Source: an uncultured Pseudomonadota bacterium
GTDB lineage: Bacteria > Pseudomonadota > Alphaproteobacteria > Rs-D84
Direction of reading: 5' to 3'
DNA: 64,000 nt
Assembly: GCA_949283535.1 (NCBI GenBank)
Contig: CASDTC010000007.1
Coordinates: forward strand, 18,746 to 82,745
In this document: piece by piece, positions 23,293 to 39,232 of the stretch
How the letters are laid out: each line of letters opens with the position of its first letter
Numbering within the stretch: the first letter of the stretch is position 1
Made by a program: the position numbers and the translations under genes
Notes under the pieces: generated by a model
Seen by the model: only the letters and a program-made list of their open reading frames with translations
Databases searched by the model: none
What the model was told of the DNA's origin: nothing

Positions 23293-23379
23293 GGGGATAT
23301 GGCGGAATGGTAGACGCTGAGGACTTAAAATCCTTTGGTTATTGCAACCGTGTGGGTTCAAGTCCCACTATCCCCACCA
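23293..23379 (+). tRNA. tRNA-Leu (anticodon UAA)
   Basis: GGGGATATGGCGGAATGGTAGACGC...GACTTAAAATC...long variable arm...GGGTTCAAGTCCCACTATCCCCACCA. Type II tRNA, encoded CCA. Confidence 0.9.
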
Positions 23380-23398
23380 CCTGATATTATGTGTTTGT

Positions 23399-23475
23399 GG
23401 ATGTGTAGCTCAGTTGGTTAGAGCGCTTCGTTCACATCGAAGAGGTCGTTGGTTCGAGTCCAATCACATCCACCA
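23399..23475 (+). tRNA. tRNA-Val (anticodon CAC)
   Basis: GGATGTGTAGCTCAGTTGGTTAGAGCGCTTCGTTCACATCGAAGAGGTCGTTGGTTCGAGTCCAATCACATCCACCA, followed by the terminator AAAAAATCCGCCATAATGGCGGATTTT. Confidence 0.9.
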
Positions 23476-23625
23476 TACAGTAAAAAATCCGCCATAATGG
23501 CGGATTTTAATACGGTTGAATTATCCAACTCTTTGTTGTTGCTGTAATTGAATTTATTCGTAAAAAAATATAGCGACACTATAAAAATAAAGCAATAAAA
23601 AACCGTCCATCGGACGGCATAATTT

Positions 23626-23701
23626 TGGTGGAGCTGATGGGACTCAAACCCACGACCTCTACGATGCGAACGTAGCGCTCTATCAACTGAGCTACAACCC
23701 C
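23626..23701 (-). tRNA. tRNA-Ala (anticodon CGC)
   Basis: Minus strand GGGGTTGTAGCTCAGTTGATAGAGCGCTACGTTCGCATCGTAGAGGTCGTGGGTTTGAGTCCCATCAGCTCCACCA. The G3:U70 alanine identity pair is present. A terminator hairpin (CCGTCC-ATCG-GACGG) lies downstream. Confidence 0.9.
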
Positions 23702-35916: not shown

Positions 35917-36630
35917 TTAATCTTTCTTTCTAAAATACACCAAATATTCTATATTGCCACTGCCACCACGAATTGGTGATTCAATAATACCAAATTGCAC
36001 ATAATCATGCTTTTCAAATGCCGCGACTACATTTTTTATCGCATTTTGCCGGTCGACCGCACTTTTTATAACGCCATGCGCGCAGGCGGCAATACTGCGC
36101 GAAACCTCGAACTGTGGCTTTATTAATGCAATGATTTGTGCTGCATTCCATTGAACCAACGCATCAACAATATTAACCAACGATATAAACGACACATCAA
36201 CAACAATCAAATCAACTGGCGCAATCGGGGTCATTGCACGGATATCAGTCTGTTCCATCGACACAACACGTGAATCATTCTTTAATTCATCTATCAATTG
36301 ATTTGTGCCAACATCAACCGCAAAAACCTTTGCCGCATTATGTTTTAATAAAATCTCTGTAAATCCGCCTGTACTGGCACCAACATCTAAACAAACACAG
36401 CCCGCTGGATTAACACCAAACACATCTAATGCACGCGCTAATTTCAAACTGCCGCGACCACTGGAATAGGGCAGTTCACCCGCCACAACAACATCTGTAT
36501 CAGACACAGATTGACTGGGTTTTTGCGAAACCACACCATTAATCCGCACCAAACCCGCCCGAATAGCAGCAATTGCCTTTGCCCGGCTAGAATACAAATT
36601 TCGTGCAACCAATGCTAAATCCAATCTCAT
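35917..36630 (-). CDS. tlyA: TlyA-family rRNA (cytidine-2'-O)-methyltransferase
   Basis: From the ATG at 36630: MRLDLALVARNLYSSRAKAIAAIRAGLVRINGVV (S4 domain), then LDVGASTGGFTE (SAM motif I). The 160 codons upstream in the tracked ORF have no TlyA counterpart. Confidence 0.88.
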   Translation of the reverse strand: MRLDLALVARNLYSSRAKAIAAIRAGLVRINGVVSQKPSQSVSDTDVVVAGELPYSSGRGSLKLARALDVFGVNPAGCVCLDVGASTGGFTEILLKHNAAKVFAVDVGTNQLIDELKNDSRVVSMEQTDIRAMTPIAPVDLIVVDVSFISLVNIVDALVQWNAAQIIALIKPQFEVSRSIAACAHGVIKSAVDRQNAIKNVVAAFEKHDYVQFGIIESPIRGGSGNIEYLVYFRKKD

Positions 36631-36814
36631 GACAGTGATTTTACATTGCACATACATAAAAATCAATATTATGTTCTTGCGTTTTGGGGTGGGGCATAAG
36701 CCCCCATTGAATGCGCCTGTGTAAATCGAACACATGCAAAAAAACAAAATCCAACCAAACATTGGTTGGAGTGCGATGAATATACAGAATAAAAAGAAAA
36801 AAGGAGATAAGAAT

Positions 36815-37087
36815 ATGAGAAAACATTTAATTATTGCCGGCATAATTTTCACCGCGCCAATTCCGCCCGCCACCGCCGTCACCAAGTGTGCAGCCCCAGA
36901 CAGATACGCAACGCGCCAAAACATCATGCGCAATATACCTGTGCCAAAAGCTCCCTTGCCGCCAGCGGTGCATTTCTTACCGCAATATTTTCTAACTTGT
37001 CGGATTAAAACGGGGACGAAGTATGAAAAAATATTTGTATTTGTTTTGGCGATTGCACCGTTCGGCGCATTTGCGACGACACAATAG
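36815..37087 (+). CDS. small ORF with a strong RBS; possible remnant of secreted-protein gene(s)
   Basis: AAGGAG lies 7 nt before the ATG at 36815. The 90-aa product begins with signal-like MRKHLIIAGIIFTAPIPPATA and ends with a second signal-like block (M)KKIFVFVLAIAPFGAFA-TTQ just before the stop. Confidence 0.3.
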   Translation: MRKHLIIAGIIFTAPIPPATAVTKCAAPDRYATRQNIMRNIPVPKAPLPPAVHFLPQYFLTCRIKTGTKYEKIFVFVLAIAPFGAFATTQ

Positions 37088-37139
37088 TTACAGCGATACC
37101 AGTGGAACATACGAATTTACATCTGTGCGTCTAATGAAT

Positions 37140-38070
37140 TAAATTTTAGGCGTCAATTTGACGCCCAAAATTTATTGAAGTAAATTATAAAAATATAAAA
37201 ATAATACTATATTTTTTAATTTTTATTTATTAAATATACTAGCAACAAAAAGCACCAACAGTTTTATACAATATATTTTATGCAAATACTGTGTAAAAAC
37301 AATAAAATATAATAAACATTTTATAAAGCACACCAAGATAGCATTAAAAAGCCCAGATTTCTGCACTTTTTAGCTAAAAAACATACTAAAAAGCAAAAAA
37401 AATCGATATAAAAGGACACCAACCAACAAATCCCATGCAATTTCAGCACAAATATTGTAAAAACAACTTTTTCAATTATAACGCTAAAAACAAGTTATTA
37501 TTTTAATTACCGAATAAATATTTTTAATTTTGCACAACATACAAAATAATTATTCATACAAAGATTTTACCATCAGACAAAAATTATAAAAATAACAACA
37601 ATCCGACATCACAAAAACAACAAGCAAGCACCACAAATCAAATAACCGAACAAACGCCACAAAACAGCCCGCCAGAACACCAAACTATACATAATATACA
37701 TTATGCGCCTTTTGTATAATTATGCCCTAAGACAAAAAACGGCGTATCGTAAAGACATTAACGCCAAACATAACGACGCTCACACCATGTTCACATATAA
37801 CAAATAAACTAAACCCACACCTTCGCCCAAAGCAATTCCACCTTAGCGCCACTCACACACAACGAAACAACACATAAAACATACACAAATGCACAAATGC
37901 CAGCCTTGACAATATGCAACTTCCTTCTGGACCTTATAGAGACCGACAAATTTTACCAAATCTACCTCATTCTCAACCCAGCCTTTATTTGTCGCCTAAA
38001 AAAAAAACAATTACACATCACAACAACAAAACTATACATAATCCCAAATTATACAACCACCCACAAAGAC
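37140..38070 (+). other. ~0.9-kb region with no convincing ORFs; the proximal part is AT-rich and the distal ~500 nt is strongly A+C-rich and G-poor on the plus strand
   Basis: No tracked ORF lies between 37111 and 37896; the only two after that (37897-38121, 37914-38102) are short low-complexity plus-strand ORFs in the A+C-rich tract. Hand counts of G in four 60-nt lines (37561, 37621, 37801, 37861) give 3, 7, 4 and 6, with A+C 46-51 of 60. Confidence 0.8.
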
Positions 38071-38100
38071 AAAAACCGGGGCAAAAATTGCCCCGGTTTT
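38071..38100. terminator. hairpin terminator usable on both strands (mscL on minus; any plus-strand transcript of the AC-rich region)
   Basis: AAAAACCGGGGCA-AAAA-TTGCCCCGGTTTT. Confidence 0.8.
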
Positions 38101-38124
38101 AATACTAAACCAAAACATTAAATA

Positions 38125-38682
38125 TTATTTTGAACTCTTTGTTATTTTTGCAATTTTTTTCAAATGCCTGTTCGCTTTTTTTGCTATATTTTTTATATCC
38201 ATTTCTAATTCACTGGGCTTATCTGGATCATCTTTTATTGGTTCAACATCTGAACAACAATTCGGACATTTTGACGCCTGGGCATTTATTGTTGATTTAC
38301 AATATGGACATGCGCGCGTATACGTTCTTGTTCGTACCTTGTTCATAATTTTCACCAACATAAATACTGCAAACATTGTGATTAAAAAACTGACCACTGA
38401 ATTCAGAAACACGCCAATGTTCATTGTTGTGGCACCTGCCGCTTGGGCTTCGGCAACAGTATTATAGTGCGCCCCAGGCGCCCCGCCCGATAAAACAACA
38501 AAAAATTGCGAAAAGTCAATATCACCCAACAGCATCCCTATTGGTGGCATAATAATATCTTTGACCAATGAATTTACCATACTAGTCATAACACTGCCGA
38601 CAATAATACCGACAGCCATATCAATTGCACTGCCCCGTTCTATAAAAGTACGAAATTCTGATAAAAATTTACTTTTAGCCAT
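38125..38682 (-). CDS. mscL: large-conductance mechanosensitive channel MscL with a C-terminal zinc-ribbon extension
   Basis: FRTFIERGSAIDMAVGIIVGSVMTSMVNSLVKDIIMPPIG is the MscL signature; two TM helices. After TM2 there is an extra CPYCKSTINAQASKCPNCC four-Cys motif and a basic tail (185 aa in total). Confidence 0.88.
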   Translation of the reverse strand: MAKSKFLSEFRTFIERGSAIDMAVGIIVGSVMTSMVNSLVKDIIMPPIGMLLGDIDFSQFFVVLSGGAPGAHYNTVAEAQAAGATTMNIGVFLNSVVSFLITMFAVFMLVKIMNKVRTRTYTRACPYCKSTINAQASKCPNCCSDVEPIKDDPDKPSELEMDIKNIAKKANRHLKKIAKITKSSK

Positions 38683-39232
38683 TTTTTATCCCTTTTTTTG
38701 AATATTCTGTAATCGCATTAATAACTTTATCCAATGTCTTACGCAAACTTTCGTCACGCGTTTGCACAGTTATATCAGCCATTGCGTATATGTCATATCG
38801 TTCTTTGATTAACTGTGCCAGAATTTTCCGACTGTCCGCATGCAACAATTGTGGACGCGTATTACGAAAATTAGTCCGTTTGACCAATAAATCCAAATCC
38901 GCACGCAGCCATACAGAAATCGCACGCGCCAGCACCATTTCGCGTACCGCCGGGGTTATAAAAGCCCCCTCGCCCGTGGAAATAACTTTTAACATTGGCG
39001 GGGTATCCAGCAAACGCGCAATAATACGTTGTTCTGCGCGTCTGAATTCGGCCTCGCCATACATGGAAAAAATATCCACAACACTGCAACCTGCGGCGGC
39101 TTCTATCTCTTTATCAGAATCAACAAACGGTATCCCCAGCCGACGCGCCAATGCGCGCCCGACACTGGTTTTACCCGCCCCCATTAATCCGACCATAACA
39201 ATCGGCTTATCCAATACTATATTTTCTATCAT
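38675..39232 (-). CDS. aroK: shikimate kinase
   Basis: From the ATG at 39232: MIENIVLDKPIVMVGLMGAGKTSVGRALARRLGIPFVDSD (P-loop plus shikimate-binding DSD). The upstream 50 codons of the tracked ORF are low-complexity. Confidence 0.88.
   Translation of the reverse strand: MIENIVLDKPIVMVGLMGAGKTSVGRALARRLGIPFVDSDKEIEAAAGCSVVDIFSMYGEAEFRRAEQRIIARLLDTPPMLKVISTGEGAFITPAVREMVLARAISVWLRADLDLLVKRTNFRNTRPQLLHADSRKILAQLIKERYDIYAMADITVQTRDESLRKTLDKVINAITEYSKKGIKNG

Follow-up and report, generated by a model that had tools for sequence, protein, structure and literature searches.

Why does a very compact bacterial genome keep about 1 kb of DNA free of genes, and why is that DNA so extreme in composition? 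The question concerns the tract at positions 37140-38100 of the window, a 64,000-nt stretch of the genome G000 (830,597 nt, ~830 kb; assembly 93% complete). The host lineage is a reduced-genome gut alphaproteobacterium, with relatives whose genomes are labelled Candidatus Enterousia or Alphaproteobacteria. The first-pass annotation had seen no convincing ORFs here, and this held. The ORF listing gives 74 aa as the longest ORF from the hairpin at 37140-37174 to the mscL stop codon at 38125, and the tract's ten ORFs of 30 aa or more all lack a Pfam match at E<=1. The ORF-free gap, 1014 nt long, is the fourth-longest stretch of G000 that has no ORF of 90 aa or more. Its features are collected in Table 1.

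Table 1. Features in and around the gap (positions in the window; ranges inclusive)
Feature	Position	Strand	Evidence or remark
TlyA-like rRNA methyltransferase gene, left neighbour	35917-36639	-	Pfam S4 and FtsJ
Disrupted small secreted-protein gene	36816-37142	+	tblastn with a 97-aa homologue of G013
Bidirectional hairpin, ends small plus-strand ORFs	37140-37174		Inverted repeat I10
A+T-rich spacer	37175-37559		Composition (plus strand A>T and C>G); unconserved in 40 relatives
Possible decayed copy of hairpin plus T-run	37351-37366	+	GCCCAGATTTCTGCAC then TTTTT
A+C-rich, G-poor flank, XerD-arm side of dif	37560-37683		Composition
dif, 28-bp XerC/XerD recombination site	37684-37711	-	E. coli dif match; 27-mer conservation; KOPS flip
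XerD arm of dif	37684-37694	-	Minus orientation
Central hexamer of dif	37695-37700	-	Minus orientation
XerC arm of dif	37701-37711	-	Minus orientation
A+C-rich segment between dif and second site	37712-38030		Composition; direct repeats D2, D3, D6
Second site	38031-38058	-	Perfect XerD arm 38031-38041, unrelated centre, degenerate XerC-like arm
Intrinsic terminator of mscL, bidirectional hairpin	38072-38100	-	Terminator scan; inverted-repeat search
mscL, right neighbour	38125-38682	-	Pfam MscL, 115.7 bits, residues 6-120 of 185

On the left, the S4 (residues 161-208) and FtsJ (residues 219-394) domains lie on a 397-aa ORF at 35917-37110. Judging by eye from the translation, we estimate that the real start of the TlyA-like gene is near 36639, at MRLDLALV. 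The small secreted-protein gene beside it has its signal-peptide ORF (MRKHLII...) and its conserved C-terminal motif in different frames, and the homologue from G013 matches 37059-37139 only (39% over 28 aa, E 3e-5). Each end of the tract carries a hairpin. The left one has 17-nt arms, 94% complementary, with 1 nt between them. The right one, with a 13-bp stem and a 3-nt loop, had been described as a strong terminator usable on the plus strand. The hairpin is there, but the terminator scan calls it on the minus strand only, where TTTTTGTCTTTGTG then follows. Since it starts 24 nt past the stop of the minus-strand mscL, it is primarily the terminator of that gene, whose product has a Cys-rich 65-aa C-terminal extension.

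The reported A+C-rich, G-depleted plus strand was borne out, and the quoted string and the hand counts fit. Between 37560 and 38070 (511 nt) there are 225 A, 147 C, 96 T and 43 G, so that G makes up 8.4%; the preceding 420 nt (37140-37559) hold 195 A, 132 T, 62 C and 31 G. Among 16,393 sliding 500-nt windows over all 830,597 nt, the tract is the genome minimum for the rarer of G and C (34 per 500 nt; mean 88.3, sd 12.6) and has the highest A+C content (361 of 500 nt, with 345 at the next separate locus). The gap as a whole has a GC skew of -0.45 and an AT skew of +0.29; among the 45 longest of the 148 gaps, the GC skews that come closest to this are +0.31 and -0.24. The same gap is the most skewed of 44 in the relative G003 (0.53 vs a median of 0.12) and of 40 in G013 (0.35 vs 0.07), and the sole window with C<=6% in 327 kb of G003 falls in it. 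The compositional anomaly is not a general property of non-coding DNA here. Of seven genomes fetched from other families of the order, the four in which the corresponding site was located do not have it. As for similar tracts elsewhere, which the first-pass annotation had proposed to look for, blastn against the genome itself found no further copy, and the equivalent flanks in relatives resemble 37560-37683 in composition, not in sequence. A tandem-repeat search of the tract returned two 8-nt mini-arrays only.

Judged by its sequence, the gap holds the chromosome dif site. The reverse complement of 37684-37711 reads AAGGCGCATAA-TGTATA-TTATGTATAGT and agrees with E. coli dif, as given in PMC3025954, at 22 of 28 positions, including all six of the central hexamer. 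When the tract was compared with 40 relatives by blastn, the dif core alone was conserved, in 24 of 24 same-genus genomes, and the conserved portion amounts to about 30 nt only. A seven-genome alignment gave the same picture, with an invariant 31-nt run at dif and a mean column identity of 47%. Across 25 genus genomes, a 27-mer spanning dif had no substitution in 17, one in seven and two in one, and the dif pattern was present in at least 120 species-level MAGs assigned to Candidatus Enterousia or Alphaproteobacteria. The full site occurs once in G000, in non-coding DNA. The XerD-arm 12-mer occurs twice, against 0.35 copies expected, with a XerC arm beside one copy only. The first-pass annotation had overlooked dif, the sole conserved element of the tract.

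As for the machinery that would act on such a site, G000 has a XerD-like recombinase gene (C6:40316-41137, 295.9 bits) and an FtsK gamma domain (78.3 bits). The XerD-like gene is the one tyrosine recombinase found in this 93% complete assembly, and XerC was not found in it, a point against the dimer-resolution reading; the other genus genomes have at least two tyrosine recombinases in 30 of 30 cases, and G003 and G013 have one XerC-like and one XerD-like gene each. The strand bias of the KOPS-like motif GGGNAGGG switches exactly at dif in these two relatives: the plus/minus counts are 9/1 before and 1/5 after dif in G003, and 7/0 and 0/7 in G013. In G000 the counts are small and agree with the relatives (3/0 to the left of dif and 0/1 to the right), and GGGGCGGG gives 4/0 on the left and 1/4 on the right. 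Another point against that reading is the GC3 skew, which changes sign ~95-100 kb away from dif in G003 and G013, roughly 10% of their 0.9-1.0 Mb genomes. In G000 the GC3 skew does not switch over the 56 kb left of dif nor over the 26 kb right of it; the whole 82.8-kb contig has one sign on both sides of dif, and so do the flanks of dif in 80 genomes. Proximity of dif to a GC-skew switch is described in PMC3025954 as a usual correlate, not a requirement. A replication origin at the tract was rejected, as the skew keeps its sign here and dnaA lies on another contig.

Our preferred reading, to which we give a probability of roughly 0.78, is that the tract is the chromosome dimer-resolution locus and that its flanks are fast-evolving spacer at a hotspot of Xer integration. 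By analogy with E. coli, XerC and XerD would bind dif, FtsK guided by KOPS-like motifs would activate recombination there, and this recombination would resolve chromosome dimers at division. The rest of the kilobase would be rapidly evolving spacer, probably kept gene-free because insertions, duplications and deletions happen at dif. That small ssDNA microviruses have a dif mimic and insert beside dif is seen in relatives and in free phage genomes, not in the window. The A+C-rich flanks do diverge fast among relatives, and their predicted folds are no better than those of shuffled sequence (z-scores of 0.11 and -0.10). Most relatives carry a hairpin plus T-run element to the left of dif, with variants CCGCAGA(A/T)TTCTGCGG; positions 37351-37366 may be a decayed copy of it, a likeness judged by eye. 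The first-pass annotation had also offered an unstructured spacer or a nucleoid-protein landing pad. This suggestion came closest to the evidence, with the tract as the spacer around a XerC/XerD/FtsK landing site; a nucleoid-protein platform returns below as part of a rival explanation.

The G-poor composition with C>G would follow because a local replication-strand substitution bias, in which G on the plus strand changes to A or T, acts on weakly constrained DNA, and slippage in A/C-rich simple sequence would add to it. The single skew sign across dif, in the contig and in the flanks of 80 genomes, is in keeping with such a bias. In the dif gaps of relatives, polarised changes per site were 0.102 for G>A vs 0.037 for A>G, and 0.040 for G>T vs 0.009 for T>G; these are crude values, obtained by parsimony from four small triplet alignments with distant outgroups. 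They predict an equilibrium with 11.5% G, a GC skew of -0.33, and A and T at 34 and 32. The claim that decay cannot produce such strand asymmetry was therefore too strong. The bias explains the G depletion but not the excess of A over T: the crude equilibrium misses both the pronounced A-over-T skew and the GC skew of -0.45 to -0.55 in G000. Moreover, a skew of neutral DNA would be common to other gaps, and the other gaps differ, which counts against a simple neutral bias. The persistence of a 0.8-1.0 kb gap in three otherwise short-gap genomes may mean that it is kept by selection.

The XerC-side flank contains a second, partial site, 347 nt from dif and in the same orientation, with a XerD arm only; its XerC-like arm, compared by eye, agrees at six of 11 positions. 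In the window, exact copies of the 13-mer AACTATACATAAT lie at 37683 and 38030 only. The segment bracketed by dif and this direct dif-like site consists of 40.7% A, 29.3% C, 9.5% G and 20.5% T, and it sits where an integrated Xer-exploiting element (IMEX) would. Going by repeats D2, D6 and D3, the second-site copy in G000 is apparently a shortened duplicate of the dif region, and the ~317 nt from dif to the second site would be a duplication or an integration scar.

Elements that exploit such sites are present in the genus. Gut microviruses carry a near-identical dif site: a complete microvirus genome has a 32-nt exact copy in an intergenic position, and an 81-nt dif query returned 35 phage records at E<=1, 30 of them with microvirus-type names. 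The first dif pattern had no match in a viral contig collection, and a shorter dif core matched seven contigs there, two of which have microvirus capsid or Rep similarity; a plasmid collection gave no match to the tract. A microvirus capsid gene was found in 6 of 151 genus genomes, in all six within ~2-5 kb of dif or a dif-like site, and three prophages lie between two dif or dif-like sites (G083, G107 and G058). Capsid genes are broken in G097 and G107, and fragments of Rep, ns and hyp3 adjoin dif in L082 and L157. In the tract of G000, no protein or DNA similarity to a microvirus is left. The free virus has 43% A. Decayed microvirus DNA was dropped as the cause of the A-richness, since the genus prophage regions have an A+C content of 46-57% (five measured, of six capsid-bearing genomes).

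How far, then, do other explanations account for the locus? The segment 37712-38030 could itself be a decayed Xer-exploiting element (a microvirus prophage or satellite) left between two attachment junctions, a reading that we regard as possible rather than probable. It has dif on one side and, on the other, a direct dif-like site whose XerD arm is perfect, the same bracket surrounds the three prophages named above, and decaying prophage pieces adjoin dif in relatives. The free microvirus site stays identical to the host site for 7-8 nt beyond the XerC arm (TTTTGTA), and the match ends inside the XerD-arm flank, as expected if the XerC-side flank is phage-derived. However, the G000 segment has no ORF and no microvirus similarity, repeats D2, D3 and D6 are equally compatible with a local tandem duplication, and in G107 the prophage is on the other side of dif while an A+C-rich 240-nt segment and a half-site remain in place. 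Intact genus prophages are not A+C-rich either, which, together with the lack of phage similarity in G000, leaves a phage origin of the tract unproven. It has also to be considered whether the architecture around dif is selected. The extra XerD-arm sites would then act as polar roadblocks, so that FtsK reaches dif and does not overrun it, and selection would maintain the A-rich, G-poor spacer because of its physical properties or because a nucleoid protein uses it as a platform. In this SMC-less genus, dif might thus sit in a purpose-built module that combines a half-site polar FtsK trap with a selected gene- and transcription-free spacer. The module would lie at the KOPS convergence, ~100 kb from where the forks meet, and the window would show dif plus its backstop at 38031-38041. 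Taken jointly, we find these proposals unlikely. The evidence for them includes an orientation rule: the 80 species genomes have, within 1.2 kb of dif, 61 additional exact copies of the XerD-arm 12-mer, and every one follows it, 51 being inverted on the XerD side, 10 direct on the XerC side and none arranged otherwise, so that the outer face of the XerD arm is always towards dif. Inverted-left arms with 0, 1, 2 and 3 mismatches number 50, 16, 36 and 28, against 0, 1, 3 and 43 for direct-left arms; the direct-right arm is exactly conserved amid diverged surroundings; and in three of three genomes viewed at large scale, no gap is as extreme in composition as the one around dif. According to PMC2800217, XerD on a dif half-site in vitro halts E. 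coli FtsK ~5-fold better from the outer than from the inner face. An AT-rich 1.9-kb intergenic region around dif in Thermococcus kodakarensis is described in PMC11840125 as an SMC boundary that is independent of dif and XerA. Yet SMC (TIGR02168, E<=1e-10) was found in none of 31 genus genomes, with 31.5 bits as the best match in G000, which leaves the known XerD/XDS and archaeal mechanisms without their target; SMC unloading by XerD sites was dropped for this reason. Furthermore, a device centred on dif should show mirror symmetry, and the skew keeps its sign across dif; no more than 42 of 80 genomes have any extra XerD arm; many of the inverted copies have degenerated or form tandem arrays, as scars would; and the direct-right arm of G083 is the far junction of a prophage.

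Two further explanations start from the RNA that the plus strand would encode. That the C-rich, G-poor strand is a Rho-utilisation zone, which would stop stray plus-strand transcription from passing dif and entering mscL in antisense, seems to us very improbable, even with a C:G ratio of 147:43 over 511 nt, a nearly unstructured predicted plus-strand RNA (MFE of -33 kcal/mol for 512 nt) and an encoded Rho (651.7 bits). The strong hairpin at 37140-37174 already ends the sole upstream plus-strand ORFs, transcription of the left neighbour leads away from the tract in several relatives, and the anomaly is missing from the four other-family genomes mentioned above. We give hardly any credence to the idea, put forward in the first-pass annotation, of a long CA-rich non-coding RNA acting as a sponge for Hfq, Crc or some other RNA-binding protein. 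The plus-strand sequence is indeed A- and C-rich and unstructured, and one metatranscriptome run contained 39% of the sampled words of 36600-38700, which may come from any part of that span and are no expression evidence. But Hfq (PF17209) was found in none of the 31 genus genomes, of which 22 have a completeness of 90% or more, nothing except dif is conserved in the 40 relatives, and the fold z-scores are those of shuffled sequence. At gathering score, Rfam recovered five tRNAs only in the whole window, and an E-value search of 36900-38300 gave five weak matches, all far below gathering score: four over the mscL terminator hairpin into mscL and one on the hairpin at 37140-37174. The tRNA/tmRNA scan found nothing in the tract, and we know of no precedent for a dif inside an RNA gene. 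CrcZ-type Hfq/Crc-sponging sRNAs have in common with the tract an A-rich, CA-containing unstructured sequence; the tract departs from them in that Hfq was not found, and in its lack of conservation, of an Rfam match and of a defined transcript. Most likely, the tract is not a regulatory RNA gene.

With dif as its core, this gap, the fourth-longest of its kind in a very compact genome, is assigned a function. Placing the dimer-resolution site in an uncultured gut lineage aids contig orientation and helps to locate the terminus and the points of prophage insertion, and the dif mimic ties gut microviruses of rodents, lemurs and cattle to a candidate host clade. A compositional oddity taken for an RNA gene can mark a recombination hotspot. 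Two results are open to direct tests in the fields of FtsK/Xer and replication termination: the strictness with which the extra XerD arms are oriented, and the 100 kb that separate KOPS convergence from the skew switch.

Several known systems bear comparison with the locus. The XDS of Bacillus subtilis, XerD-binding sites reported to unload SMC in the terminus (Karaboja et al. 2021), are likewise dif-like sites near the terminus that keep the XerD arm and have a non-working XerC arm. The XDS are scattered over the terminus region, whereas the genus sites lie within 0.66 kb of dif, in genomes of which 0 of 31 yielded SMC. The Thermococcus kodakarensis region (Yamaura et al. 2025) also has large gene-free, compositionally odd dif surroundings, but it is archaeal and TrmBL2- and SMC-dependent, its oddity is AT-richness instead of strand skew, and no homologous machinery is shown here. 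Microvirus (gokushovirus) prophages that enter dif by way of XerC/XerD (Kirchberger & Ochman 2020; Krupovic & Forterre 2011) also carry the phage dif mimic in a non-coding region and, like the genus prophages, lie between one canonical and one variable dif motif. Unlike in those cases, the host is a reduced-genome alphaproteobacterium, and the window holds an ORF-free segment of ~317 nt, rather than a prophage, in the same bracket. The IMEX bracket is present in G000, and element genes, which were not found there, occur in relatives and in free phage genomes. The site itself resembles dif of E. coli and other Proteobacteria (Carnoy & Roten 2009; Kono et al. 2011), with which it has in common the 11-6-11 layout with palindromic inner arm parts, the same central hexamer, a non-coding low-G+C setting, a single copy, a better-conserved XerD arm, KOPS convergence, an FtsK gamma domain and Xer recombinases (both types in G003 and G013, a XerD-like one in G000). 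The distance from dif to the skew switch is 7-14 kb in some of the cases tabulated by Carnoy & Roten 2009, vs ~95-100 kb in the two relatives. Unlike the usual dif, the G000 site lies in the most strand-skewed gap of its genome, and the sites of the genus are often flanked by oriented XerD-arm copies.

The gene-free kilobase listed in the table contains no ORF longer than 74 aa, and Pfam gives no match at E<=1 for any of its 10 ORFs that reach 30 aa, in agreement with the first-pass annotation. The A+C-rich, G-poor composition described there was also recovered, at the extreme of the genome. Positions 37560-38070 (511 nt) hold 225 A, 147 C, 96 T and 43 G, and positions 37140-37559 (420 nt) hold 195 A, 132 T, 62 C and 31 G. 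Among 16,393 sliding 500-nt windows across the 830,597-nt assembly, the rarer of G and C reaches its genome-wide minimum in the tract (34; mean 88.3, sd 12.6), and A+C its maximum (361/500, with 345 at the next separate locus). With a GC skew of -0.45 and an AT skew of +0.29, the tract is the most extreme among the 45 longest of the genome's 148 gaps in which no ORF reaches 90 aa.

Features of the tract and its surroundings (window positions)
Feature	Positions	Strand	Remark
tRNA cluster	23293-23701		Leu-taa, Val-cac, Ala-cgc
Small secreted-protein gene	36816-37142	plus	apparently frameshifted
Gene-free tract	37140-38100
Hairpin	37140-37174		left border of tract; follows small plus-strand ORFs
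Candidate element copy	37351-37366		may be decayed
Source of duplicate	37589-37742
dif	37684-37711	minus
Shortened duplicate	37998-38079		repeats D2, D6, D3
Second perfect XerD arm	38031-38041	as dif
mscL terminator hairpin	38072-38100		right border of tract
mscL	38125-38682	minus	Pfam MscL, 115.7 bits

Several features lie outside the tract. In the secreted-protein gene, for which an intact 97-aa gene in the relative G013 served as reference, the signal-peptide ORF and the conserved C-terminal motif YSDTSGTYEF.. fall in different frames; this may be an assembly error. The mscL product carries a 65-aa C-terminal extension past its Pfam match (residues 6-120 of 185) with a zinc ribbon-like motif, CPYC...CPNCC, and the 3' parts of relatives' mscL also show similar Cys codons. 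Near the tRNA cluster, raw GC skew goes from about 0 to negative, which mostly reflects gene orientation.

What the tract holds is the chromosome's dif locus, with one extra XerD-arm site and a fast-evolving spacer. When 37100-38124 was compared by blastn with 40 relatives, the sole conserved piece (query ~574-619) was present in 24 of 24 same-genus genomes, and a 7-genome alignment with a mean column identity of 47% contained an invariant 31-nt run. The minus-strand site reads AAGGCGCATAA-TGTATA-TTATGTATAGT and shares 22 of 28 positions, all six of the central hexamer among them, with the E. coli dif that Kono et al. give in their Methods (PMC3025954); by the arm assignment stated in Carnoy & Roten (PMC2731167), positions 1-11 form the XerC arm and 18-28 the XerD arm. 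Of 25 genus genomes, 17 carry the dif 27-mer unchanged, 7 differ from it by one substitution and 1 by two. When one genome per species was scanned for the pattern, at least 120 contigs had it. The 80 contig titles listed named Candidatus Enterousia, which PMC12306168 describes as a gut lineage with reduced genomes in the order Rs-D84, Alphaproteobacteria or an uncultured proteobacterium, apart from three (Rickettsiales, Muribaculaceae and Neomarinimicrobiota). We assign the site to the well-known dif kind with a probability of about 0.95.

The genome encodes an FtsK with the gamma domain and an XerD-like recombinase with Phage_integrase and SAM-like N-terminal domains (295.9 bits against TIGR02225, whose cut-off of 329.6 it does not reach). 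This assembly, 93% complete, yielded a single tyrosine recombinase; at least two occur in 30 of 30 other genus genomes, and the relatives G003 and G013 have one XerC-like and one XerD-like gene each. The motif GGGNAGGG, which from E. coli work we take to be FtsK-guiding (KOPS), switches strand exactly at dif. Its plus/minus counts are 9/1 before and 1/5 after dif in G003, 7/0 and 0/7 in G013, and 3/0 to the left and 0/1 to the right on the contig of the window, where GGGGCGGG gives 4/0 and 1/4.

The skew result at dif was contrary to expectation, as GC skew at third codon positions (GC3 skew) does not change sign there. A single sign prevails throughout the 82.8-kb contig of the window. In the regions drawn from loci L050-L081, the sign changes near 488 kb in G003 (C1 188-515 kb) versus dif at 388.7 kb, and near 235 kb in G013 (C2 1-288 kb) versus dif at 139.4 kb, a distance of ~95-100 kb or roughly a tenth of the genome. 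General G/T-rich words track the skew, and KOPS-like words track dif. KOPS-like motifs thus converge on dif, but with the GC3 skew switching so far off, replication forks seem to pass dif in one direction and to meet far from it, which fits the same-sign skew on both dif flanks.

After the second perfect XerD arm come an unrelated centre and an XerC-like arm that is degenerate, and the shortened duplicate lacks the dif centre and XerC arm. Genome-wide, the XerD-arm 12-mer has 2 copies against 0.35 expected, only one of them beside an XerC arm. Exact XerD arms were counted within 1.2 kb each side of dif in 80 species genomes (L082-L161), 42 of which have at least one extra arm. The 61 extra arms fall into two arrangements, inverted on the XerD side (51) and direct on the XerC side (10), with 0 in the other two, and therefore the outer face of XerD always points towards dif. 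Tandem arrays of as many as 7 units occur (period ~45-70 nt, the first 33 nt from dif), and a good many of the copies are degenerate. The relevant experiment of Graham et al. (PMC2800217) has XerD on a half-site stopping FtsK ~5-fold better from the outer face, which makes a backstop role of the extra arms conceivable. SMC, which the XerD sites of B. subtilis target, was found in 0 of 31 genomes of this genus, the present one included.

A further dif-linked element, CCGCAGAAATCCGCCATTTTT, ~20 nt, then CAGAATAGGGCG with T-runs, is conserved in most relatives at 300-800 nt from dif on the XerD side (L082-L161); the loci of the 80 relatives and the present genome together give 86 matches with <=4 substitutions, and positions 37351-37366 of the window may be a decayed copy. 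The element resembles two weak hairpin terminators and is not a genome-wide repeat in the present genome, G003 or G013.

Whether similar tracts recur in relatives, a check raised by the first-pass annotation, received a divided answer: the composition recurs at their dif gaps on the same strand relative to dif, but the flanks cannot be aligned between species. Averaged over 80 genomes, G drops from ~18% to 10-13% and A climbs from ~30% to 38-43% between -500 and +300 of dif, and GC skew on both sides is -0.19 to -0.37 versus about -0.17 in coding flanks. The anomaly is peculiar to dif. Within 327 kb of G003, the only C<=6% window and the longest G+T>=72% stretch both fall in the dif gap. This gap ranks first in skew among the 44 gaps there (0.53; median 0.12), as does that of G013 among 40 (0.35; median 0.07). 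Four genomes of other families within the order lack the anomaly.

As the cause of the composition we lean slightly towards a substitution bias acting on DNA under weak constraint at an integration hotspot, together with slippage: the bias would deplete G, and slippage would add to it. A crude polarised count (parsimony with distant outgroups, on four alignments of dif-gap triplets from relatives) gave per-site rates on this strand of 0.102 for G>A against 0.037 for A>G, and 0.040 for G>T against 0.009 for T>G. The implied equilibrium (A 34, C 23, G 11.5, T 32%; GC skew -0.33) accounts for the G depletion, and leaves the large excess of A over T and the stronger values of the present genome unaccounted for. 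Simple-sequence slippage contributes, as in a (CAACA)n run in G024; tandem repeats of 56-100 nt occur in G022 and G023. That the dif surroundings were selected for an architectural role appears unlikely. Phage ancestry was rejected as the explanation of the composition because the genus prophage regions measured are only 46-57% A+C. The earlier proposal of a non-coding RNA sponging Hfq/Crc gained no support: none of 31 genus genomes, this one included, yielded Hfq (22 of the 31 at least 90% complete), no Rfam family reaches its gathering score in the tract (weak E-value hits sit on hairpins or in mscL), and shuffled sequences fold as well as the 512-nt distal half (z = 0.11 and -0.10 on the two strands). 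Rho is encoded in the genome, which leaves a rut role conceivable though improbable.

In relatives, dif serves as an integration site for microviruses. At E<=1e-5 the tract matched a single record of the phage collection, a complete 5,756-nt microvirus genome with an exact 32-nt dif copy in the gap between the replication-initiator gene and the next gene; PQ007109.1 (L202) is a phage record with such a dif mimic. An 81-nt query matched 35 phage records at E<=1, 30 of them with microvirus-type names and from rodent, lemur and cattle samples. A microvirus capsid gene was found in 6 of 151 genus genomes (G166, G083, G107, G135, G058 and G097; L218-L223) and not in the present one. All six have a dif or dif-like site ~2-5 kb or less from the capsid gene, and two such sites bracket the prophage in G083, G107 and G058. 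The prophages include intact and decaying ones (the capsid gene is in three pieces in G097 and has a stop codon in G107), and Rep, ns and hyp3 fragments adjoin dif in two further genomes. In 11 of 24 same-genus relatives dif lies <=3.6 kb from a contig end, which fits strain-level differences at dif; assemblies seem to break there, perhaps owing to prophage content that varies among strains. The ~30 free microviruses from animal guts with a near-identical dif mimic suggest that their hosts belong to this lineage or are close kin of it. XerC/XerD-dependent lysogeny was shown for enterobacterial gokushoviruses in the work reported in PMC7062461, and the dif-adjacent microvirus prophages of this genus match that lysogeny as described there.
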